DNA from: Escherichia coli | GTDB taxonomy: Bacteria > Pseudomonadota > Gammaproteobacteria > Enterobacterales > Enterobacteriaceae | DNA length: 64,000 nt | Strand: one strand, 5' to 3' | Assembly: GCF_045037415.1 (NCBI RefSeq) | Contig: NZ_CP173439.1 | Shown here: in pieces, positions 2,367 to 28,198 of the stretch | Position numbering within the stretch: position 1 is the stretch's first letter | Layout: every line of letters begins with the position of its first letter | Notes under the pieces: model-generated | The model's input: the letters and a program-made list of their open reading frames with translations, nothing else | Databases searched by the model: none | Told to the model about the DNA's origin: nothing | Program-made: the position numbers and the translations under genes

Positions 2367-2666
2367 GTGGAGCGGACAATCCAAATGGTGAATTACCGTC
2401 TTATATCACTGGCGCTGACAAACAGGGATATTGCGACAATTCACAGCAATATCGTGCAGGAATACAACACCCTTAAAGGGTATAGCTGGAAATGGCTGGG
2501 TGGGGTGTCAGTGGCTTTTCTGGTTATGTTCTGTGTGCTCGGATGGGGAATGAAAACAATACTCGACAGGAACTACAACGCCACAGCGGCGGTGTATCAG
2601 AAAGTTGTGACACTGGAAGATAAACTGGTGGAGAAACCTGTCACGGGGAAGAGCCGGAAAAACTGA
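2367..2666 (+). CDS. hypothetical small membrane protein
   Basis: 99-aa ORF with one hydrophobic segment (GGVSVAFLVMFCVLGWG); start uncertain, may overlap the IS end. Confidence 0.3.
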   Translation: MERTIQMVNYRLISLALTNRDIATIHSNIVQEYNTLKGYSWKWLGGVSVAFLVMFCVLGWGMKTILDRNYNATAAVYQKVVTLEDKLVEKPVTGKSRKN

Positions 2667-2731
2667 CGCGCTTCGCTTGTCCAACGCCTCACGACCCGCG
2701 AAAGAATTTCGCGAACCGTTCACTGTTTTTT

Positions 2732-2941
2732 TCAATATGATTCTGTCTGCTTTGGTCGATAAAGCAGACGATAGTATTCCAGCCTTCGTATATATAACGG
2801 TACGTGCTCATCAGTAAGAGCTGGCGGTATTGTGTTATCAGGGGGAAGTTTTTTCAGATACTCACGAAATGCCTGGCTTGATGCCATAAAATCTACAGCT
2901 GCATCGATAATATGTGGGATATTTTCATCTAATTTTGTCAT
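2732..2941 (-). CDS. hypothetical protein
   Basis: 69-aa ORF, convergent with 2367..2666; no recognised motif. Confidence 0.25.
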
Positions 2942-3450
2942 GATGATTGATCTGATATTATCACGGTTCGTGAATTATAGTATGTCACTATTATTTATGC
3001 TTTAGTGAACCAGAAAAAATCCCCCGTTGGTATAGGGGGATATGTAAGGAGAAATAACTTCGCAGGTGTTCTTGTTTGTATTATAACGTGAAAAGAATGC
3101 ACGCAACTTAATTAATCTGCCGTACTTCCTTTCAGTTTTCAAGATAAGGTTTATAATAAAACATGGAATGGAAGCAAGCTTTAAGGTTTCAGCTCTAAAA
3201 TTTTTAATATCTATTAACTAGCTAGTTGTTGTCCTTGTGAGCATGTTGTATATAAAAGCTAGGATAATATCCTGACCGGAGTATTCATATTCCTTATCCC
3301 CTCTGTGTTCTCAGAGGTTTTTTTCTGTATTTAATGATATGAGCTGGAATGCGATTCCGGCCCCCCCCGTTTACATAATTCTCCCTGACATACGGCACCG
3401 GAATCGCATTGATTTTGCATTGCTAATGTCTAACTGTGCTGGTGAATGTT

Positions 3451-3488
3451 GGGGGCAGTTTGGATATCGAAAATTATTGTACGTTAAG
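3451..3488 (+). repeat. 38-bp Tn3-family-type terminal inverted repeat (copy A)
   Basis: Starts GGGG, ends ACGTTAAG as in Tn3-family IRs; related copies at 5787, 13586, 27905. Confidence 0.75.
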
Positions 3489-3554
3489 GTTGTTTTTTGA
3501 CCTTGTCGGGGTCCGCCTGCGGGCAGTAGAGATCATATAAGGTATTCAATAACG

Positions 3555-3830
3555 TCATGATGCGGTTATCCCCGATACGGTAATATACCATTTTACCTGC
3601 CCGTCGGGTTCGACCAGCTTCAGGCGACGCATGACACCCAACTGCTGAGACAGGGTCGGCTGAGTGATACCGACCGCCGCTTCCAGCTCGGTCACATTCG
3701 CTTCCCCCTGGCTTAACTGACACATCAACAATAGCCGGTCGCTGTTGGCCAGTCCCCGTAGGACATCTGCTGCCCCCAGGGCTGCATTTTTCATATCAGT
3801 CTGACGTTTTGTGTCTTCATTCATGGGCAT
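3555..3830 (-). CDS. ArsR/SmtB-family transcriptional regulator (BigR/YgaV-like)
   Basis: Winged-HTH region LLLMCQLSQGEANVTELEAAVGITQPTLSQQLGVMRRLKLV; divergent from the CoADR-rhodanese gene; start codon uncertain. Confidence 0.7.
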   Translation of the reverse strand: MPMNEDTKRQTDMKNAALGAADVLRGLANSDRLLLMCQLSQGEANVTELEAAVGITQPTLSQQLGVMRRLKLVEPDGQVKWYITVSGITAS

Positions 3831-3990
3831 TGCTGGTTTCTTATATTATGTATTTTTATATAATATTGTTCAGTATAATGATAGTGGCGTAATTTTGCCA
3901 CCGTGATCTTCAGGTCTGCAGCGTCCAGCTGGACCGGGTAACTAATTATATATGGCAGATATTTTGCCCCGAGTGAACAGAGAGGATGTA

Positions 3991-5649
3991 ATGAAAATAG
4001 TGATTGTTGGTGGTGTTGCCGGGGGAGCATCCGCTGCAGCCAGGGCTCGTCGGTTATCAGAGGATGTCAGTATTGTTGTGTTTGAGCGGGGAAGCGATGT
4101 CTCTTTCGCCAACTGTGGATTGCCTTATCATATAGGCGGAAAAATTCCGTTACGGCAGTCGCTGATTCTGAAAACCCCGGAGGATTTTAAATCCCGTTTT
4201 AACATAGACGTCCGTATCCGTCATGAAGTGATGTCAGTAGACCCGGTTAATAAGATGGTGACGGTTAAAAATCTGACCTCCGGGGAGGTCTATACCGAAG
4301 AATGGGATCGTCTGCTCCTCAGTACCGGTGCCGCTCCGGTTGTTCCCCCCTTGCCCGGACTACAGGAAGCGGGTGTCTTTACACTGCGAAATCTTACTGA
4401 CATGGATGCTATCCAGGCGTGGATTGAGCAACATAATATCGCTCACACCACGCTTGTCGGGGGGGGATTTATCGGGCTCGAAGTGATGGAGGCACTGAGC
4501 GAAAGGGGGATCAGTGTGACCCTGCTGGAGATGGGGGAACAGGTTATGGCTCCGGTTGATCCTGAAATGGCATCGGCCCTGCATCAGGAAATCAGGAGTC
4601 ATGGCGTGGATCTGCGTCTCAGAACGGCGCTCACCGAGGTACTGCGGACAGAGACGGGATTCCGCGTTGCACTGTCTGACGGTGGGTTTCTGCAGACCGA
4701 CATGGTTATTCTCGCCATCGGGGTAAAACCTGAGAGCAGCCTTGCCACAGGAGCCGGGCTCGCCGTGGGTAAACGGGGAGGCATAAGTGTCAATGCCTGT
4801 ATGCAGACAAGTATCCCTGACATCTATGCCGTGGGGGATGCAGTTGAAACACCTGACCTTGTCTTTCAGGAACCCGCTAATGTTCCTCTGGCAGGGCCAG
4901 CCAACCGCCAGGGACGCATTGCTGCTGATAATATGCTCGATCGTCACAGCCTTTACCATGGCAGTCAGGGGACATCCATTTGTAAGGTATTTTCGCTGAG
5001 TATTGGCAGTGTCGGGGCGAATGAAAAGCAGCTGAAAGCCCATGGTACCCGATACGAGAAGGTTTACGTCCATGCCGCTGATCATGCCAGTTACTACCCG
5101 GGGGCAACAATGATCAGTCTGAAACTGCTGTTCAGCCCCGATACCGGTAAAATTCTCGGGGCCCAGGCGTCAGGGAAAAAAGGGGTTGATAAACGCATCG
5201 ATGTCCTGGCTGTCGTACAGCGCGCGGGGCTTACCGTTAACGATCTCGAGCATCTGGAGCTGACCTATGCTCCGCCTTTCAACAGTGCAAGGGACGTCGT
5301 TAACCAGGCTGGAATGGTGGCGGCAAATGTTATCAAGGGTGATACGGTCATCTGTCATGTCCGCGATGTGTTACAACGGGAACCGGGCAGTTATTGTTTA
5401 CTTGATATTCGTTCTCCTGCAGAACTGAAACAATTTGGTGAATATCCTGACGCGCTATCCATCCCTCTTGATTCCCTGCGGGAGAATCTTGATAAGTTGC
5501 CTGAAGATAAAGAGATTATTATCGGGTGTCAGAGTGGTCTGCGGGGGCATGTGGCATACCGTATGCTTCAGTCTCACGGCTTCCGGACATATAATCTGAG
5601 TGGTGGTTTTATAACTTGGCAGGCGGTTACGGAATCAATGAGTCAATAA
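3991..5649 (+). CDS. CoA-disulfide reductase-like flavoprotein with C-terminal rhodanese domain
   Basis: N-terminal FAD motif IVGGVAGGASAA, redox Cys in SFANCGLPY, second Rossmann fold GGGFIGLE, C-terminal rhodanese with active-site Cys in IGCQSGLRG; AGAGG RBS before ATG 3991. Confidence 0.8.
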   Translation: MKIVIVGGVAGGASAAARARRLSEDVSIVVFERGSDVSFANCGLPYHIGGKIPLRQSLILKTPEDFKSRFNIDVRIRHEVMSVDPVNKMVTVKNLTSGEVYTEEWDRLLLSTGAAPVVPPLPGLQEAGVFTLRNLTDMDAIQAWIEQHNIAHTTLVGGGFIGLEVMEALSERGISVTLLEMGEQVMAPVDPEMASALHQEIRSHGVDLRLRTALTEVLRTETGFRVALSDGGFLQTDMVILAIGVKPESSLATGAGLAVGKRGGISVNACMQTSIPDIYAVGDAVETPDLVFQEPANVPLAGPANRQGRIAADNMLDRHSLYHGSQGTSICKVFSLSIGSVGANEKQLKAHGTRYEKVYVHAADHASYYPGATMISLKLLFSPDTGKILGAQASGKKGVDKRIDVLAVVQRAGLTVNDLEHLELTYAPPFNSARDVVNQAGMVAANVIKGDTVICHVRDVLQREPGSYCLLDIRSPAELKQFGEYPDALSIPLDSLRENLDKLPEDKEIIIGCQSGLRGHVAYRMLQSHGFRTYNLSGGFITWQAVTESMSQ

Positions 5650-5786
5650 GAGATGAGGTGCCATACACATGGCACCTCATCTTCCAGATTCATTGAAAAC
5701 GTATTATATGGAATAGAAATCTACAAAAATAATTAACACCCTGGATGGTACCCTATTGCGATAATGTGGACTGTTCAAAAAACAGG

Positions 5787-5824
5787 CTTACCGTACAATA
5801 ATTCTCTATATCCAAACTGACCCC
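5787..5824 (-). repeat. 38-bp Tn3-family-type inverted repeat (copy D, inverted partner of A)
   Basis: Reverse complement GGGGTCAGTTTGGATATAGAGAATTATTGTACGGTAAG. Confidence 0.75.
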
Positions 5825-6880
5825 AATGTTCCTGAATGTAAATCTCCGTACAAAGATATCGTTGAGTTTTATATAATTCATTGTTTTTATTGTGTTTTGT
5901 TTTTTTTGGTTGTGCTGGTTTGTAGTTATAAAAAACCCCTGGGAATCCAGGGGTAGGTAAGGAAAACAAATGATACTCAGTTAGTGTTGCACTTTAAACG
6001 GGTTGAAGTATAACTCGTATTAAATGAGATGTTGAAAATAAGTGAAAACCATTGCTGGTTGCAATAGGGCAGTATGCGTAAAAAATAAATTTGTGATGCT
6101 TTTCAAAAAAACAATTAATACATGAATATTACAGCTCATATATTACAGTTTATAAAAAACTGTGTTTTATCTATTACATAGAGAAAAATTCTTATCCTGA
6201 GCTGTGAACTTGGTTGTTTCGTTTGATATATATCTTTGTAAATGTGGTTTATTATGCGGGCATTTTTTATTGAGTATTGAATCAGAATAAGTGATGCAGC
6301 TAAATTTATTTGCGTAACTATTTCATTGTCAATATTCTGACTCAATCTGACACCTATCGTTTCTCTTGGATTCCCCACTTTTGTGGTTTTTTATCCGGAA
6401 CGGGATAGTGCCAGTTGTTTTTTATCAGCCTCAGGGTATTTTGGGGCGGTTGCGAACATTGACGCATTCCACAACTAAAAAAAATTTCTCACAGACTCTG
6501 ATTCTTGCCCCGACCCTTGGTCGGTTTTTTTTTGTCCTGGCGAAACGTGAAGCTCTGAAACAGGAAACCCCGTCAGAGCGCCACGCACCAGGGGAGAAAA
6601 CTTGTCGTTTTGAGCCGTTCGGTGTTCAGAACGCACGAAACCGATCGCACATCGCTTTCGTGCATAGTTATGCAACGCCCTGAAAACGATTCTGACGCGT
6701 TTTTCTGGTTTGGCCTGGTGTTTTCTTGTCTTTTTGCGTTTTTTGCGCCAGAAAGCGATTGAGGGCGTTTTACATGGTACGTACAACGGGAGTTATGGTA
6801 AATGGATCGGGTTTTCGGGAAGGTTCGACAGGATTTGCCGTTGGGTGTAGTGTAAGCGACTGAAAAACAAACGCCCCTGA

Positions 6881-7579
6881 AATCATGTCCAGATCCGGCA
6901 GAACCAGCCTCATGCGCAGTTCTGGCTGGTTTTTGACGTTGATCGCGAGGGGGCAGCGATTGACTGGAGCGACCGGAACGCTCCCGCGCCGAACATCACC
7001 GTAAAAAATCCTGTGAACGGTCATGCTCACCTGCTCTACGCGCTCAATATCGCCGTGAGAACCGCGCCGGACAGCTCGGTTAAGGCGCTGAAATACGCCG
7101 CTGCGATTGAACGTTCGCTGTGTGAGAAACTTTGTGCTGATGTGAACTACAGCGGACTGATTTGTAAAAATCCGTTCCACCTGGAATGGCAGGTGATGGA
7201 GTGGCGAGAGGAAGCCTATACCCTCGATGAACTGGCTGATTATCTCGATTTGAGCGCCTCAGCGCGCCGTAGCATCGATAAACATTACGGGATGGGGCGA
7301 AACTGCCACCTGTTCGAAATGACGCGCAAATGGGCTTACAGGGCGATTCGTCAGGGCTGGCCCGAATTCTCACAGTGGCTTGATGCCGTGATTCAGCGTG
7401 TCGAAATGTACAACGCATCGCTTTCCGTTCCGCTTTCACCGCCTGAATGTCGGGCTATTGGCAAGAGCATTGCGAAATACACGCACAGGAACTTCACGCC
7501 GGAAACTTTCGCACAGTATGTGGCTGATACGCACACATTAACGTACGTTTTCGTTCCATTGGCCCTCACCCCCCGATAA
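6881..7579 (+). pseudogene. ColE2-type (primase-like) Rep initiator homolog with no recognisable N-terminus
   Basis: Frame is open from 6881 with no ATG until a GTG at 7013; motifs FWLVFDVD, KNPVNGHAHLLYAL, NPFH, GMGRNCHLF recalled as Rep/primase-like; preceded by about 1 kb of AT-rich non-coding DNA. Confidence 0.4.
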
Positions 7580-7747
7580 CGACCCAGGTAGCGCGCCGTA
7601 TTCCCCCCGCCGGCCGTTTTCTTCGACATGTACATCAGGCGCGGAACTCATCGGGGCGCGGGAATGAAATCCCATTCAGACTCCGGATAGATTCAAGCAA
7701 GCCCACTTATCGTCAAAATCGGTGTTGCAAAAACGGGAGTGACCATA

Positions 7748-7770
7748 GATCCGTTTTCCAAGCGGACCCC
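7748..7770 (-). repeat. Partial Tn3-family IR (outer 23 bp) matching the IR of the miniature element at 63603
   Basis: Reverse complement GGGGTCCGCTTGGAAAACGGATC equals the first 22-23 bp of the IR at 63603-63640. Confidence 0.6.
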
Positions 7771-7816
7771 ATAATATCGGCTGGTAAACATCACTCGCTA
7801 GTGCATTCTTTTTGTT

Positions 7817-7835
7817 GGTAATGATAATCATTTAC
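7817..7835. promoter_or_regulatory. Fur box upstream of chaN-like operon
   Basis: GGTAATGATAATCATTTAC resembles Fur consensus GATAATGATAATCATTATC. Confidence 0.6.
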
Positions 7836-7911
7836 ATTCATTCTTTGATGTTTTATCATAATTAATGTTTTGTCAATAAATATATGGAAACATATTGTTT
7901 CAGATGGGAAT

Positions 7912-8787
7912 ATGAGAAAGTTCATCCTTATTTCTATGATAACGTTAGCTAGTGTTAGTCTGGGAGCCTGCAGACAGAATGTCACCATAAAGCAGGATGC
8001 GCCAGGGCAGAAAGCTTTCCTGACTGACGGGCAGATTTACGATTTGCACAGTGGCAAAATTATTTCTAGCAGCGAGCTTTTGGCGGATCTTGCTACCGCT
8101 CAACATCTTATTATTGGTGAAAAACACGATAATGCCGAGCATCATCAGATTGAGCTTTGGCTTATTCAAAATTTGCTCATCCAGCGACCACAGGGGAGTG
8201 TGTTGCTTGAGATGTTGACGTCAGAGCAACAGCCCCGAGTTAACCAAGTTAAATGTTGGCTGAAAGATAATCCTGTGGTTCGAGATAGCCGTGTTCAGGA
8301 ACTACTTAACTGGCAAAAAGGGTGGTCCTGGGAGATGTATGGCGACATCGTCATGCAGCTATTACGTGGGCCTTACCCGCTGCTCAATGCCAACATTGGC
8401 CGGGAGCAGATATTGGCACTGTACAAAAAAAACGAATTTCCTAAAGGAAAAAAATCCACTGCACCTGTGGTACAAGAAGCTCTGCGTGAAACCATCATAT
8501 CTATGCATGAAGGCAACCTTGAAAGCCAGCAACTGACGTCAATGCTCTCTATTCAGCAGCAGCGGGATCGCTACATGGCCCGCCAGCTTCTGAGTGCCCC
8601 GGTACCGTCGTTGTTGATTGCAGGTGGTTATCACGCGTCAAAAAGCATGGGCGTACCGTTACACATGGAAGATCTTGCCACCGGCACCCATCCAGTGGTG
8701 TTGATGCTTGCAGAAAAAGGAATGAACATCACAGTAGATCATGCTGACTACGTGTGGTTTGTAGCGCCAGATACAACAAAAAGGTAA
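7912..8787 (+). CDS. ChaN-family (heme/iron-associated) lipoprotein
   Basis: Lipoprotein signal LASVSLGAC; GEKHD...EHH motif region typical of the ChaN family. Confidence 0.55.
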   Translation: MRKFILISMITLASVSLGACRQNVTIKQDAPGQKAFLTDGQIYDLHSGKIISSSELLADLATAQHLIIGEKHDNAEHHQIELWLIQNLLIQRPQGSVLLEMLTSEQQPRVNQVKCWLKDNPVVRDSRVQELLNWQKGWSWEMYGDIVMQLLRGPYPLLNANIGREQILALYKKNEFPKGKKSTAPVVQEALRETIISMHEGNLESQQLTSMLSIQQQRDRYMARQLLSAPVPSLLIAGGYHASKSMGVPLHMEDLATGTHPVVLMLAEKGMNITVDHADYVWFVAPDTTKR

Positions 8788-8794
8788 ACCATGG

Positions 8795-9571
8795 ATGATG
8801 AATATTCTCCACTTCTCACAGTCGGTAAAATGGAGCAGCTGGTTTATCTGTTCTCTACTGCTTCATGGACTGATTTTCCTTGCGTTTATCTGGCGTTTTT
8901 CCGAAGTTCAGCCCGCTATGTCTCCTGCACCGGCGATCATGCTGCAATGGGCAGAAATTATAGAGGCTCCTTCTTCTCCACTTTCGCTTCCGGTGGGAAT
9001 CGCTCAACAGGAGTCCGCAGTGACAGAAGAAAAGCAACAAACTGAGGACAGACAACAACGTCCTGTCACTGAAGACAGTGATGCAACCATTGAAATAACT
9101 AGGAAGAAAAAGTCATCCGATGGAGAAAAGAAAAAGACACGTCCACCTCGTAAGATAAAGGCTCAAACCAGCGACAGCAACCCCACAGCCGTTTCCAGTA
9201 ATGCTGCACCTCAGGCTCTGGTCGAATCGTCCCGTATTGCTGCGCCTTTTAACAGTGACTCAACAAAGCGAGATAATTCTGAGGCATCTTGGGAAAGCAG
9301 AGTAAAAGGCCACCTAAACCGTTATAAACGTTACCCTGGCGATGCCAGAAAACGTGCACGAACCGGCACAGCCGTCGTGACTTTTACCGTAAACACGGAA
9401 GGCACTATTGTCAGTAGTTTCTTGGAAATCTCTTCAGGAACCTTTTCTCTTGACCGCGAAGCTATTGCTGTTTTAGAACGCGCTCAACCACTTCCCAAAC
9501 CACCGCCTGAAATATTGGAGGGAGGATTATTTAAAGTAAAAATGCCGATTACCTTTAAGTTGAAGGAGTAA
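8795..9571 (+). CDS. tonB: TonB-family energy transducer
   Basis: N-terminal anchor with S...H motif (SLLLHGLIFLA), Pro/Lys/Glu-rich spacer, C-terminal TonB domain. Confidence 0.7.
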   Translation: MMNILHFSQSVKWSSWFICSLLLHGLIFLAFIWRFSEVQPAMSPAPAIMLQWAEIIEAPSSPLSLPVGIAQQESAVTEEKQQTEDRQQRPVTEDSDATIEITRKKKSSDGEKKKTRPPRKIKAQTSDSNPTAVSSNAAPQALVESSRIAAPFNSDSTKRDNSEASWESRVKGHLNRYKRYPGDARKRARTGTAVVTFTVNTEGTIVSSFLEISSGTFSLDREAIAVLERAQPLPKPPPEILEGGLFKVKMPITFKLKE

Positions 9572-9739
9572 AGGGATAATTGGCCGTTCAAGTTCATTTA
9601 ACTGAAATTTAATTTTCATTTTTATGCTGAACATTTTATCAAACTTTTCCACTGTCAAAAAAATCAAAAAGACAGTAGAACATAATTAATAAACAAATAG
9701 TTATACTTATCTTTATTAATATTATACCCAAGGAAATTT

Positions 9740-12001
9740 ATGAACGTTATAAAACTGGCTATCGGCTCAGGCATATTATTGCTCAGCTGCGGTGCTTACT
9801 CACAATCCATCAGTGAAAAAACTAATTCCGACAAAAAAGGAGCGGCAGAATTCAGTCCGCTCAGCGTTTCTGTCGGGAAGACGACCAGTGAGCAGGAAGC
9901 TCTCGAGAAAACAGGCGCGACCAGTTCCCGGACAACGGACAAAAACCTGCAATCACTTGACGCAACAGTGCGTAGTATGCCTGGTACTTATACTCAAATA
10001 GATCCTGGTCAGGGAGCAATCAGTGTGAATATTCGAGGCATGAGCGGATTTGGTCGTGTAAACACTATGGTCGATGGTATTACCCAGAGTTTTTACGGAA
10101 CCTCTACCTCCGGAACAACGACGCATGGTTCAACTAACAATATGGCTGGCGTACTTATAGATCCTAACTTACTGGTAGCAGTTGATGTTACACGCGGTGA
10201 CAGCAGTGGCTCTGAAGGGATCAACGCCCTTGCCGGTAGTGCAAATATGCGTACTATTGGCGTTGACGATGTAATATTTAACGGTAATACATATGGCCTT
10301 CGTTCACGTTTCTCTGTCGGTAGTAATGGGCTGGGACGCAGCGGAATGATCGCCCTTGGTGGAAAAAGCGACGCTTTTACGGATACGGGAAGCATTGGCG
10401 TTATGGCTGCTGTGAGCGGCAGTTCTGTGTACTCTAATTTCTCAAATGGTTCTGGAATTAACAGCAAAGAGTTTGGTTATGATAAATATATGAAGCAGAA
10501 CCCCAAATCCCAACTGTATAAAATGGATATCAGACCAGACGAATTTAACAGCTTCGAACTTTCCGCTCGAACCTATGAAAATAAATTTACACGTCGTGAT
10601 ATAACCAGTGACGACTATTACATTAAATATCATTACACCCCTTTTTCTGAATTAATTGACTTTAACGTAACGGCCAGTACCAGTCGCGGTAATCAAAAGT
10701 ATCGTGATGGCTCGCTGTATACTTTCTACAAAACCTCAGCGCAAAATCGTTCTGACGCGCTGGATATCAACAATACCAGCCGGTTCACTGTCGCGGACAA
10801 TGACCTGGAGTTTATGCTGGGCAGCAAACTGATGCGTACCCGCTATGACCGGACCATTCACTCAGCGGCGGGCGACCCGAAAGCGAATCAGGAATCGATC
10901 GAGAACAATCCGTTCGCACCCTCCGGCCAGCAGGATATTTCAGCGCTGTATACCGGGCTGAAGGTTACGCGCGGCATCTGGGAGGCAGATTTCAATCTCA
11001 ACTACACACGTAACAGGATCACAGGGTACAAGCCCGCCTGCGATTCACGCGTTATCTGCGTGCCACAGGGTAGCTACGATATTGACGATAAAGAGGGTGG
11101 CTTCAACCCTTCAGTTCAGCTTTCTGCTCAGGTAACACCATGGCTTCAGCCGTTCATTGGCTACAGCAAATCCATGCGCGCCCCGAACATCCAGGAGATG
11201 TTCTTCTCTAATTCAGGAGGCGCATCCATGAACCCATTCCTGAAGCCTGAACGTGCAGAAACCTGGCAGGCGGGTTTTAACATTGATACCAGAGATTTAC
11301 TGGTCGAACAGGATGCCCTGCGCTTTAAGGCTCTGGCGTACCGCAGCAGGATCCAGAACTACATCTACAGCGAGTCTTATCTGGTTTGTTCTGGAGGTCG
11401 TAAATGCAGTCTGCCTGAGGTGATTGGCAATGGCTGGGAGGGCATTAGCGATGAATACAGCGACAATATGTACATCTACGTTAACTCGGCAAGCGACGTT
11501 ATCGCAAAGGGCTTCGAACTGGAGATGGATTATGATGCAGGTTTTGCTTTTGGTCGACTCTCTTTCAGCCAGCAGCAAACAGACCAGCCAACCTCCATCG
11601 CCAGCACCCACTTTGGCGCAGGGGATATAACCGAACTGCCCAGAAAATACATGACGCTGGATACTGGTGTTCGCTTCTTCGATAACGCGTTGACCCTGGG
11701 CACTATCATAAAATACACAGGCAAGGCTCGTCGCCTGTCGCCTGATTTTGAGCAGGACGAACATACCGGCGCAATAATCAAACAGGATTTGCCGCAGATC
11801 CCAACGATTATCGATCTCTATGGTACTTACGAGTACAACCGCAACCTGACACTGAAACTTTCGGTACAAAACCTGATGAACAGAGATTATTCGGAGGCGC
11901 TGAATAAGCTCAACATGATGCCAGGTCTTGGTGACGAAACCCACCCAGCCAATTCCGCGCGTGGCAGAACATGGATATTTGGCGGGGATATTCGTTTCTG
12001 A
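9740..12001 (+). CDS. TonB-dependent outer-membrane receptor
   Basis: Signal peptide, plug and barrel layout, C-terminal aromatic residue (RF); MRAP...NPFL region resembles the heme-receptor FRAP/NPNL motifs but lacks the conserved His. Confidence 0.75.
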   Translation: MNVIKLAIGSGILLLSCGAYSQSISEKTNSDKKGAAEFSPLSVSVGKTTSEQEALEKTGATSSRTTDKNLQSLDATVRSMPGTYTQIDPGQGAISVNIRGMSGFGRVNTMVDGITQSFYGTSTSGTTTHGSTNNMAGVLIDPNLLVAVDVTRGDSSGSEGINALAGSANMRTIGVDDVIFNGNTYGLRSRFSVGSNGLGRSGMIALGGKSDAFTDTGSIGVMAAVSGSSVYSNFSNGSGINSKEFGYDKYMKQNPKSQLYKMDIRPDEFNSFELSARTYENKFTRRDITSDDYYIKYHYTPFSELIDFNVTASTSRGNQKYRDGSLYTFYKTSAQNRSDALDINNTSRFTVADNDLEFMLGSKLMRTRYDRTIHSAAGDPKANQESIENNPFAPSGQQDISALYTGLKVTRGIWEADFNLNYTRNRITGYKPACDSRVICVPQGSYDIDDKEGGFNPSVQLSAQVTPWLQPFIGYSKSMRAPNIQEMFFSNSGGASMNPFLKPERAETWQAGFNIDTRDLLVEQDALRFKALAYRSRIQNYIYSESYLVCSGGRKCSLPEVIGNGWEGISDEYSDNMYIYVNSASDVIAKGFELEMDYDAGFAFGRLSFSQQQTDQPTSIASTHFGAGDITELPRKYMTLDTGVRFFDNALTLGTIIKYTGKARRLSPDFEQDEHTGAIIKQDLPQIPTIIDLYGTYEYNRNLTLKLSVQNLMNRDYSEALNKLNMMPGLGDETHPANSARGRTWIFGGDIRF

Positions 12002-12069
12002 TGACAATTTCCGCTAGGTTCAGACAATACGTTTTCTCTCTTATGTCAATTTTATTGCAGGAACGAAAA

Positions 12070-26240: not shown

Positions 26241-27002
26241 TCAAAGATTAAGGTTATTTCGATCGCTGGCAAGACGCTGTAAGAATTGACCATATCCCTG
26301 CGGCCCCATCCAGTAGTTAATACTTTTCTCAACGCCGGTTGATGTCAACGTCGCACCGGAAATACCGTCAACGGTATATTCATCGGCATGTTCAGGTTTA
26401 TCCTGTACTATTTTCAATGCAGGATGTCCGCTGTTATCTAATAATCGTTTCCCTGGCCACTGTTTGCGCCAGTTGGCGTCTTCCACCCTAGCCCCCAGAA
26501 ACGGCGTTTCCCGTTGCTGATAATAATACAGATTTCTCACCGTACGACCGTCCAGCCCCAGAGCAAGAAACGCATGCATCATGGATTTCGCGCCCTTACC
26601 GGTAACTGGAATGATAACCTGCTGAATTTCATTATTTTTATCTTTCACAAAGAACACATCCGCCACCGTACAGCGCTGACGAACCTGCGCTGGGTCGCGT
26701 TCAGGGGCAAGTTTTTCACACTTCTGCCGCGCGGTGTCCGCGCTGCTGCCAGCCACCAGTTCGCCGGAATCTAAATTAACATGGCGTTGAATAATATAAC
26801 GATGATAGAGCGTTTCGACTGATTTTTTATCCTGGGTCTCTGATTTCATCAGGCCCGCAGCGTGTAAAATTGCCGCCTGTTTTTCCTCCTCTGTCGGCTC
26901 CGTCATTTCTCCCTGGAACAGCATAAACCATGCCGCCGCCGCAACAAAAATAAGGACACAAAGCACCATCATTGATGCAACAATAATTTTACCCTTGCGC
27001 AT
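26241..27002 (-). CDS. FMN-binding-domain protein (NqrC/RnfG-like), membrane-anchored
   Basis: N-terminal TM anchor; flavinylation-type motif VDGISGATLTSTGV. Confidence 0.6.
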   Translation of the reverse strand: MRKGKIIVASMMVLCVLIFVAAAAWFMLFQGEMTEPTEEEKQAAILHAAGLMKSETQDKKSVETLYHRYIIQRHVNLDSGELVAGSSADTARQKCEKLAPERDPAQVRQRCTVADVFFVKDKNNEIQQVIIPVTGKGAKSMMHAFLALGLDGRTVRNLYYYQQRETPFLGARVEDANWRKQWPGKRLLDNSGHPALKIVQDKPEHADEYTVDGISGATLTSTGVEKSINYWMGPQGYGQFLQRLASDRNNLNL

Positions 27003-27904: not shown

Positions 27905-27942
27905 CGGGGTCAGTTTGGATATAGAGAATTATTGTACTATAA
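27905..27942 (+). repeat. 38-bp Tn3-family-type IR (copy C, solo)
   Basis: GGGGTCAGTTTGGATATAGAGAATTATTGTACTATAAG, 36/38 identical to copy D. Confidence 0.75.
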
Positions 27943-28198
27943 GGGCTTCCCCGGCATGTCAACGCCGGTGTTTACGGTTTCTGTCTGCACTATAGTAAAA
28001 AAATAAAGGGGAGAGACTGCGGTACTATAAACGGTCATGATGAATCGTCATCGATTCGGACCCTGATGAAAGACGCTCGTGAGGCTCTAGTTCGTTAGTC
28101 GGGTACACTTGCCCTGTACAATAAGCAGATATACCTCACGGGGTCTAACCCTTTATCATCAACGAGTTGCAGATCAGATGGTCATACAGCTTTGTACT

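Follow-up and report, generated by a model that had tools for sequence, protein, structure and literature searches.

Introduction

In plasmids of the ColE2 type, the primase-initiator Rep binds to an origin of 32 bp lying just 3′ of its own gene, and its translation is limited by RNAI, an RNA antisense to the leader of the rep mRNA (PMC6856555). A cer-like site has also been described in the ColE2-type MOBQ42 plasmids; located upstream, it lets the host XerCD, together with ArgR and PepA, resolve multimers (PMC6856555). Surveys also describe IncF plasmids that “co-encode” Col156 (PMC6949217; PMC6981087).

In this work, we analyzed a 64,000-nucleotide stretch of Escherichia coli DNA (contig NZ_CP173439.1), hereinafter referred to as the window, which embeds a ColE2-type rep-like frame. 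The host plasmid is F-type (FinP, the traJ 5′ UTR, and sok are present), and the segment under study neighbours the cjrABC-senB genes. When compared with the ColE2-type replicons ColE2-P9 and ColE9-J, the window exhibits the same Pfam domains in its rep fragment and the same order of elements, i.e., terminator, cer-like site, leader/antisense RNA, and rep. However, it differs from them in lacking the start codon, the RBS, the first 41 codons, the HTH, and the 32-bp origin, and in having only half of the antisense gene; because of the missing start, HTH, and origin and of the halved antisense gene, the segment fails as a replicon. It is very likely that the region represents an inactivated ColE2-type replicon (PlasmidFinder “Col156”, MOBQ42), carried as a passenger on an F-type cjrABC-senB plasmid.

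Results

The Rep Frame and Its Identity

As stated in the initial annotation, which was made from the sequence alone, the Rep frame is preceded by a TGA (6878-6880), is open from 6881 up to the stop at 7577-7579, and has GTG 7013 as its first in-frame ATG/GTG/TTG. The similarity to ColE2-type Rep suggested there also stands: the fragment matches the Pfam families Replicase (PF03090, E = 4.6e-40) and PriCT_1 (PF08708, E = 1.4e-5), its DNA is 94% identical to the ColE9-J rep, and a full-length homolog matches PDB 3VW4, the DNA-binding domain of the ColE2-P9 Rep (E = 2.5e-41). Pfam and PDB were used for this assignment since NCBIfam has no model for the ColE2 Rep, and indeed it returned no family for either the fragment or the full-length protein. 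Intact Rep proteins are 304-311 aa long and embed PF03090, PriCT_1, and the HTH, whereas the fragment embeds the first two only.

The protein alignment revealed a rep pseudogene on the plus strand (6898-7536), corresponding to codons 42-254 of a 304-311-codon ColE2-type rep. The fragment retains the primase motifs I (LVFDVD, residues 51-56) and II (GHAH) and the PriCT_1 domain, with no internal stop or frameshift over 213 codons; the maintenance of both motifs in an uninterrupted frame could reflect either a recent inactivation or a residual constraint. Start codon, RBS, and C-terminal HTH are absent, and the fragment is not a complete, translatable rep gene. In the PGAP annotation, this stretch appears as a pseudogene of an incomplete “replication initiation protein”; hence, its status as a pseudogene is already known from the public annotation.

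Loss of the 5′ End

In the alignment with p3-LC-1302-2020, the left-hand match to the window ends at 6900 and the right-hand one begins at 6898, which allowed us to place a deletion junction to within 3 bp, at a GCA microhomology (6898-6900) also recovered in a three-way alignment. The deletion encompasses 185 bp, of which 60 nt belong to the leader and 125 nt to the coding sequence, and the Rep frame is devoid of a start because this event took the end of the leader and codons 1-41. In the autonomous plasmids of 5.2-7.5 kb, the intact homologs start 41 codons 5′ of the retained part of rep and run 50-57 codons past it. The claim that no upstream frame can supply the N-terminal part of Rep is, thus, correct, the comparison with the homologs showing that this DNA was deleted. 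A native start at GTG 7013 in a full-length homolog, proposed in the initial annotation as the observation that would disprove the loss of a start, is not what the homologs show; the native start has been deleted. A messy deletion, apparently suggested by the odd bases at the junction in the comparison with NZ_OZ546997.1, was discarded, in that these bases are allelic and the deletion is clean with respect to p3-LC-1302-2020.

The plasmid pVR50B (NZ_CP011136.1) shares with the window the flanking genes and the same junction between rep and a transposon inverted repeat (IR, see below) adjoining cjrA, but it still has the 185 bp, so that neither the leader nor the first 41 codons, start included, are affected and the antisense hairpin is preserved. 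For the pVR50B rep, PGAP reports a “missing C-terminus” only. The passage from the pVR50B type to the window type is a two-step decay series.

The Antisense RNA Gene

The minus strand of intact plasmids carries a long hairpin followed by UUUGUUUUU. In one of them, the hairpin fold has z = −3.7, with none of 200 shuffles as good, and a second one folds into a like shape although the sequence of its stem differs. No such hairpin persists in the window (z = −0.04), and what is left is the stump of an RNAI-like antisense RNA gene (6860-6897, minus strand) retaining the 3′ arm and the U-run; no ColE2-type RNAI gene complementary to the rep mRNA leader was recognized. We infer that the 185-bp deletion also took the 5′ arm and, from its presumed position, the RNAI promoter. 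Since a simple promoter/terminator scan of the intact leader of the first of these plasmids (2300-2850) found no consensus promoter for the antisense RNA, its assignment relies on the folding and on the literature.

Loss of the 3′ End and of the Origin

The rep gene is also truncated at its other end, a feature that had been overlooked: it is cut after codon 254, at 7536/7537, by the inner end of a solo 38-bp Tn3-family terminal IR of the Tn1000/ISEc63 type (7537-7574, minus strand), whose outer end is oriented toward cjrA and from which the open frame takes its last 13 codons and its stop. Tn3-family terminal IRs of 38 bp run from GGGG to ACGTTAA(G); the one at 7574-7537 shows 3 mismatches to a Tn1000-type IR and aligns with the end of an annotated ISEc63-family Tn3-like element, the tnpA gene of which ends within the IR. 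No tnpA adjoins the solo IR, because the rep sequence abuts its inner end. A mismatch scan of the window disclosed no partner of the same IR type at ≤9 mismatches, and the Tn3-type ends that it detected at 13519 and 57458 are unrelated. A simple transposon insertion does not account for rep being joined exactly at the inner edge of the IR.

The HTH spans residues 275-308 of the full-length Rep, and the last 50-57 codons have been replaced by the IR; the fusion after codon 254 therefore leaves the region without the C-terminal HTH and without the origin. In three intact plasmids, ColE9-J included, the stop of rep is directly followed by the motif CCTATATCAGATAACAGCGC, which was identified as the origin by its conservation with ColE9-J and by the description in PMC6856555. 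This motif is absent from the window, with no 32-bp origin lying 3′ of rep, and the sole match to its 17-nt core (at 26427, with 3 mismatches) is at chance level.

The cer-Type Xer Site

A putative cer-type Xer multimer-resolution site, apparently intact on the basis of its sequence, is located upstream of the deletion (6590-6803, plus strand). Its core, GGTACGTACAA-CGGGAG-TTATGGTAAAT (6776-6803), consists of 11-bp XerC and XerD arms separated by a centre within the 6-8-bp range and is the sole match in the 64 kb (1 mismatch; 0.00 expected by chance). On the XerC side, where sites of this type have about 180-200 bp of accessory sequence with an ArgR box at a fixed distance, the ARG-box-like TGCATAGTTATGCA (6661-6674) is placed 115 bp before the core; the corresponding TGCATAGGTATTCA of ColE1 is at 113 bp, and a like spacing is found in ColE9-J and in two Col156 plasmids. 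With respect to the ColE1 cer, the XerC arm has 10/11 matches, the XerD arm is identical, the ARG-box-like palindrome is at an equivalent distance, and GCGTTTTA is conserved adjoining the core; in contrast, the centre has 6 bp (CGGGAG) instead of 8, and the remaining accessory sequences are poorly conserved. Homology with ColE9-J begins at 6592, the cer/leader region of this plasmid being 89% identical to that of the window.

The Upstream Kilobase

The kilobase preceding the Rep frame had been described as strongly AT-rich, which is true of 5825-6500 (33% GC vs. 51% in the whole window) but not of 6501-6897 (49.6% GC). The former is a spacer of small-plasmid backbone with no conserved ORF, and its conservation with other Col156 plasmids is restricted to 5869-6012 and 6359-6395. 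The absence of ORFs exceeding 100 codons was not confirmed, as two TTG-start ORFs just over this length exist (6366-6683, plus strand, 105 aa; 6475-6786, minus strand, 103 aa); both share sequence with the terminator and the cer site, and neither is likely to be a gene.

The plus-strand terminator recognized in the initial annotation was recovered by the terminator scan: it is an intrinsic one (CCGACC-CTT-GGTCGG, stem 6510-6524, followed by T9; overall 6510-6533) lying just 5′ of the cer/rep module, and it is kept in p3-LC-1302-2020 with an altered loop. The terminator scan and the alignment also pointed to a conserved block on the minus strand (5928-6000), a candidate small RNA or terminator module, in which a −10-like TATACT is followed, after ~65 nt, by an intrinsic terminator (stem 5954-5935 plus T6). 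In the alignment with two diverged Col156 plasmids, the block is conserved while its flanks have diverged; it is present in ~295 plasmids in essentially two alleles. Rfam searches on the region (permissive thresholds) and on the whole window (gathering thresholds) gave nothing relevant in 5600-7900: a PsrR1 match to the minus-strand terminator is weak (E = 0.17), and both this and a mir-627 match to the oxidoreductase terminator were rejected as hairpin look-alikes.

The Small-Plasmid Segment and Its Context

The blastn comparison with the complete 7,462-bp NZ_OZ546997.1 (2421-6889 at 99.0% and 6893-7536 at 95.8%) delimits a segment of a Col156/ColE2-type MOBQ small plasmid at 2421-7536, amounting to ~5.1 of 7.46 kb. 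The segment abuts an IS21 end on the left (transposase and helper genes at 350-2319) and the Tn3-family IR on the right, and complete autonomous small plasmids of this type align collinearly with the window except at the deletion. The 7.46-kb Col156-type plasmids harboring arsR and a CoADR-rhodanese gene (e.g., NZ_OZ546997.1 and NZ_OP242265.1) share with the window 99% identity over 2421-6889, including an IR-bounded cassette, the AT-rich spacer, the terminator, and the cer site, but they carry an intact rep, the ori, mobA, and the oriT region, none of which is found in the window. The value of 95.8% suggests that the rep fragment may descend from a ColE2-type allele different from that of the 7.46-kb plasmids. 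In pCE10A, the upstream context is a colicin-immunity one, instead of the 5.1-kb small-plasmid segment.

The cassette (3451-5824) has no transposase, is inserted in the AT-rich backbone, and is bounded by inverted 38-bp Tn3-family IRs that agree at 34/38 positions, AATGT(T) recurring on either flank; cassette-free relatives are collinear across the empty site. Its cargo consists of an ArsR-family regulator and a CoA-disulfide reductase with a rhodanese domain (NCBIfam TIGR03385, E = 3e-147), and position 5825, from which the initial annotation started, is the first base beyond its right IR. On the other side of rep, between the solo IR and the cjrA promoter, a ~140-bp repeat (7630-7777) is widespread: >5,000 plasmids carry it, frequently more than once. 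An IS4321 transposase gene immediately precedes it in one plasmid that we inspected, and the repeat is probably an IS4321/IS5075-associated end fragment. Its interpretation as a single-strand promoter hairpin was abandoned, as the fold is no better than that of shuffles (z = +1.1).

Of 5,426 complete E. coli genomes, 473 carry the rep/IR junction, a number that refers to the junction and not the deletion allele, since BLAST joins both halves on intact alleles. MOB-suite assigns the best-matching F plasmid to rep_cluster_2131, i.e., the cluster of ColE9-J.

Discussion

Of the two possibilities that had been put forward for this region, a decayed auxiliary replicon and a regulatory/sRNA region, the data reported here support the former, and the decay is even greater than previously recognized, for rep has lost both its 5′ and 3′ ends and the origin is gone. 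Such a segment would initiate no replication and would produce neither Rep nor RNAI; no replication or incompatibility function would be expected of it. The upstream kilobase would correspond to the native backbone of the small plasmid, with no separate regulatory invention. The regulatory option is right insofar as a terminator, a cer-type Xer site, and an antisense stump, all of them plasmid-maintenance signals, are present; a dedicated plus-strand sRNA is not supported. We found no evidence contradicting the idea of a dead replicon.

Different explanations might be envisaged for the same region. The idea that the missing start is an assembly or sequencing artefact can practically be set aside, given that the identical junction is found in hundreds of independently assembled complete plasmids and that the deletion is a clean one of 185 bp at a 3-bp microhomology. 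A shortened but functional Rep of 188 aa initiated at GTG 7013 appears extremely improbable; even though the 188-codon frame is open, this GTG is not preceded by a Shine-Dalgarno sequence (AAAAAATCCT-GTG), the product would lack primase motif I (LVFDVD) and the C-terminal HTH, its last 13 residues would be those of a transposon IR, it would have no origin to act on, and all the full-length homologs begin 132 codons 5′ of it. Less extreme, but still very unlikely, is the existence of a dedicated small regulatory RNA, transcribed from the plus strand and terminated at 6510-6533. That terminator does exist, Col156 plasmids conserve it, and a weak TTGACG-type −35 lies ~45 nt 5′ of it; however, no consensus promoter was picked up by the scan over the 370 nt upstream of it on the plus strand, Rfam has nothing at or near threshold, and the ColE9-J terminator occupying the same position, after the lysis gene, merely ends the colicin/lysis operon. 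The simplest role for this terminator is the insulation of cer/rep from read-through, whereby it would shield the replicon from upstream transcription, and the minus-strand block at 5928-6000 represents a better candidate for a small RNA.

A further explanation, which we regard as unlikely although clearly less so than the preceding ones, is that the remnant is still partly active. According to this idea, the putative cer-type site would be used by the large plasmid, either for multimer resolution dependent on XerCD/ArgR/PepA or for docking, that is, site-specific cointegration with co-resident Col156 plasmids, and the 185-bp deletion would have been favored because it abolished RNAI-based incompatibility. 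In agreement with this, the core and the ARG box show no damage and lie at the right distance from each other, the piece retained in pCE10A-type plasmids begins at 6590, exactly where the accessory sequences start, and the undeleted allele (pVR50B) still possesses the antisense hairpin. Moreover, the DNA on the left of the junction is 98.3-99.0% identical to small plasmids vs. 95.8% for the rep fragment, a contrast that would fit a subsequent recombination, within the cer/leader region, involving a resident small plasmid. On the other hand, accessory-dependent Xer sites are typical of small high-copy plasmids, those of 30-100 kb usually being without them, and large circles are expected to be resolved poorly by their mechanism (bioRxiv 10.1101/2024.04.05.588136). 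In addition, all the carriers are nearly identical, and conservation is therefore silent on selection. The stronger proposal, in which the site would serve both as a host-Xer resolution site and as a docking point for Col156 plasmids, with formation of cointegrates and conduction, and the deletion would have spread by ending antisense-RNA incompatibility, appears quite doubtful. Partial activity of the cer-type site could coexist with an inactivated replicon.

Conclusions

The inactivated replicon raises no new biological question, and its practical value concerns replicon typing. Typing tools score the rep pseudogene as a replicon; on cjrABC-senB plasmids of the kind described here, the Col156 marker is a dead remnant with no start, origin, or copy-control RNA, and scoring it as a second working replicon, or taking it to indicate a separate small plasmid, would be a mistake. 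The decay series leading from the pVR50B type to the window type provides, in turn, a handy lineage marker for these virulence plasmids.

Structure and Origin of the rep Remnant

The rep frame follows a TGA at 6878-6880, is open from 6881 and stops at 7577-7579, and it indeed has no start, as the initial annotation had claimed, before the GTG at 7013, the first in-frame start-type codon. The ColE2-type Rep likeness proposed there was borne out by Pfam, which returned PF03090 (Replicase, E=4.6e-40) and PriCT_1 (E=1.4e-5) for the translated frame; this pairing is that of ColE2-type initiator-primases (PMC6856555; PMC5862659).

By megablast, some 20 large plasmids of E. coli contain the whole of 5650-7870 with 97-99.7% identity, and complete circular plasmids of ~7.46 kb cover the first 85% of it. 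The intact plasmid NZ_OZ546997.1 (7,462 bp), which shares the ArsR regulator and the FAD-dependent oxidoreductase of the window and also encodes MobA/MobL and a Rep of 311 aa, aligns with 2421-6889 (99.0%) and 6893-7536 (95.8%), and 185 bp of it lying between the two blocks are missing from the window. At its left edge, 2421, the segment adjoins an IS21 end. Relatives of 5.2 and 7.9 kb were typed by MOB-suite as Col156/MOBQ. The host replicon is F-type, as judged from FinP, the traJ 5' UTR and sok, and the immediate neighbours of the remnant are cjrA (ChaN family), cjrB (TonB family), cjrC (receptor) and senB.

The 5' deletion can be placed on the intact 5.2-kb plasmid p3-LC-1302-2020, which is identical to the window up to ...CATGTCCAGATCCGGCA and again from GCAGAACCAGCC, the left and right alignments sharing the three bases GCA (6898-6900). 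The 185 bp lost are made up of 60 nt from the leader and 125 nt from the coding part of rep, so that Rep is kept from codon 42 (Q-N-Q-P-H-A-Q...) onward; PGAP annotates this allele as a pseudogene. The large plasmid pVR50B, carrying the same insertion next to cjrA, has the flanks and the 3' junction of the window and still keeps the 185 bp, PGAP recording only a "missing C-terminus"; its allele represents an intermediate state.

The frame is also truncated at its 3' end, a feature absent from the initial annotation. The match to every small plasmid ends at 7536, after codon 254 (...YVADTHT), and from 7537/7538 a 38-bp Tn3-family terminal inverted repeat (IR) follows, its minus strand reading GGGGGGTGAGGGCCAATGGAACGAAAACGTACGTTAAT. 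This IR (7537-7574) can be aligned to the terminus of a Tn3-like element annotated as ISEc63 family, in which tnpA ends inside the IR. Since its inner end abuts rep, with the fusion exactly at the inner boundary, and its outer end points towards cjrA, the orientation identifies it as a solo IR left by rearrangement rather than by simple insertion. The 50-57 C-terminal residues lost include the HTH (residues 275-308), which is part of the DNA-binding domain whose structure is PDB 3VW4. The motif CCTATATCAGATAACAGCGC comes after the stop codon, the place of the 32-bp ColE2 origin (PMC6856555), in three intact plasmids, one of them ColE9-J, which has been studied experimentally; all sequence 3' of codon 254, this motif included, is gone, and a search for the motif in the window found none.

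Rep translation in ColE2-type plasmids is stopped by an antisense RNA whose sequence is complementary to the leader of rep (PMC6856555). The minus strand of the leader in intact plasmids forms a long hairpin, then UUUGUUUUU; in one of them (L001) the hairpin has a z-score of -3.7, with 0/200 shuffles folding as well, and in another (L008) the same shape is formed with different inner-stem bases. The window retains the 3' arm and the U-run alone (~6860-6897), and the fold is gone (z=-0.04). The promoter of this RNA would lie over the rep start codon, a position at which a simple promoter scan flagged no site.

Beyond the remnant, cjrABC-senB (7870-13245) is flanked by the outer ends of two unlike Tn3-family IRs, the left one (ending at 7574) of Tn1000/ISEc63 type and the right one (13519-13556) of Tn3/Tn2 type. 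Upstream of cjrA, 7630-7777 is an orphan fragment of a ~140-bp sequence that >5,000 plasmids carry, frequently more than once, and that is located directly after the IS4321 (IS110-family) transposase gene in one plasmid examined; it probably represents an end of IS4321/IS5075 and the IR targeted by that element. Near the window end, 59435-62798 encodes an HlyD-family adaptor and a peptidase-domain bacteriocin-export ABC transporter, an export pair of microcin/colicin V type.

The Upstream Kilobase and Its Possible Residual Functions

The kilobase upstream of rep belongs to the small-plasmid backbone itself, and its parts can be identified. Position 5825, where the initial annotation began, is the first base beyond the right IR of a transposase-less cassette (3451-5824; 2.37 kb) carrying an ArsR-family regulator and a CoA-disulfide reductase with a rhodanese domain. 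Given the inverted 38-bp Tn3-family IRs at its ends (3451-3488, plus; 5824-5787, minus; 34/38 identical) and the direct repeat AATGT(T) flanking it on both sides (3445-3450 and 5825-5830), the cassette is a non-autonomous Tn3-derived cargo element in the small-plasmid backbone; cassette-free Col156 relatives are collinear over the empty site. An IR of this type with ~40 bp of adjoining interior (5750-5827) recurs in >4,000 PLSDB plasmids across Enterobacteriaceae, and a third copy stands alone at 27906-27943.

The AT-richness claimed for the whole region applies to the spacer at 5825-6500 (33% GC versus 51% in the window) and not to 6501-6897 (49.6%). No conserved ORF was found in the spacer, of which diverged relatives share 5869-6012 and 6359-6395 only. 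Likewise, the statement that no ORF exceeds 100 codons is valid for ATG starts only, because two ORFs starting with TTG are longer (103-105 codons), and these overlap the terminator and the cer region. Within the spacer, a minus-strand block (5924-6012), ~82% conserved in ~295 Col156-type plasmids with diverging flanks and existing in only two alleles, has a -10-like TATACT/TATAGT, ~65 nt and a strong intrinsic terminator (5954-5935, then T6), and is a candidate small RNA.

The predicted plus-strand terminator is present (6510-6533; stem 6510-6524, then T9) and conserved in Col156 plasmids. It could mark the 3' end, at 6533, of a dedicated plus-strand sRNA, an idea to which we give very little credit; in ColE9-J, a terminator at the matching position follows the lysis gene. 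Further downstream, there is what looks by sequence like a complete cer-type Xer site, with the core GGTACGTACAA-CGGGAG-TTATGGTAAAT at 6776-6803 (the single match within the 64 kb, where chance predicts 0.00; the ColE1 cer core was itself located verbatim in ColE1) and an ARG-box-like TGCATAGTTATGCA 115 bp upstream, versus 113 bp in ColE1. ColE9-J and two Col156 plasmids have the same layout, the homology to ColE9-J starts at 6592, the beginning of the accessory sequences, and a cer-like site was already reported for this plasmid family (PMC6856555). A residual use of the site, the main rival reading, would be compatible with the decay of the replicon; we consider it rather doubtful, in that accessory-sequence-dependent Xer sites are typical of small high-copy plasmids and expected to perform poorly on large circles (bioRxiv 10.1101/2024.04.05.588136), and the carriers are so alike that conservation carries no information.

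A functional protein starting at GTG 7013 is effectively excluded, given the lack of an SD, the loss of motif I and of the HTH, and the missing origin, and hundreds of independent assemblies exclude that the loss of the start codon is an artefact. The suggestion of a decayed auxiliary replicon is the one that stands: at the level of sequence comparison, the homology is clear, both ends of rep are cut, the origin motif is absent and the antisense hairpin is lost. Such a segment would be unable to replicate, to make Rep or to exert RNAI- or ori-based incompatibility.

Distribution and Meaning of the Remnant

Of 5,426 complete genomes of E. coli, 473 have the rep/IR junction (query 7460-7630, coverage >=80%), nearly always on plasmids of ~100-170 kb. 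The junction is also found, with cjrA, on the IncK2/Z plasmid pECOED, and in pCE10A (3519-5000) a colicin-E1-family immunity gene precedes the remnant in place of the small-plasmid segment; therefore the truncated rep/cjrABC-senB module has moved between backbones. Since the pCE10A-type cer/rep piece begins at the equivalent of 6590, with another gene upstream, the window arrangement seems to be the later outcome of recombination with a resident Col156 plasmid.

The object is of an already known kind, a decayed ColE2/Col156-type replicon with a pseudogene annotation. Surveys describe Col156 as "co-encoded" on IncF plasmids with cjrABC-senB (PMC6949217; PMC6981087), and MOB-suite places the F plasmid that matches best in rep_cluster_2131, to which ColE9-J belongs. 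What the present analysis adds is the exact anatomy of the remnant, and the practical lesson is that this Col156 typing marker on such F plasmids does not denote a working replicon.
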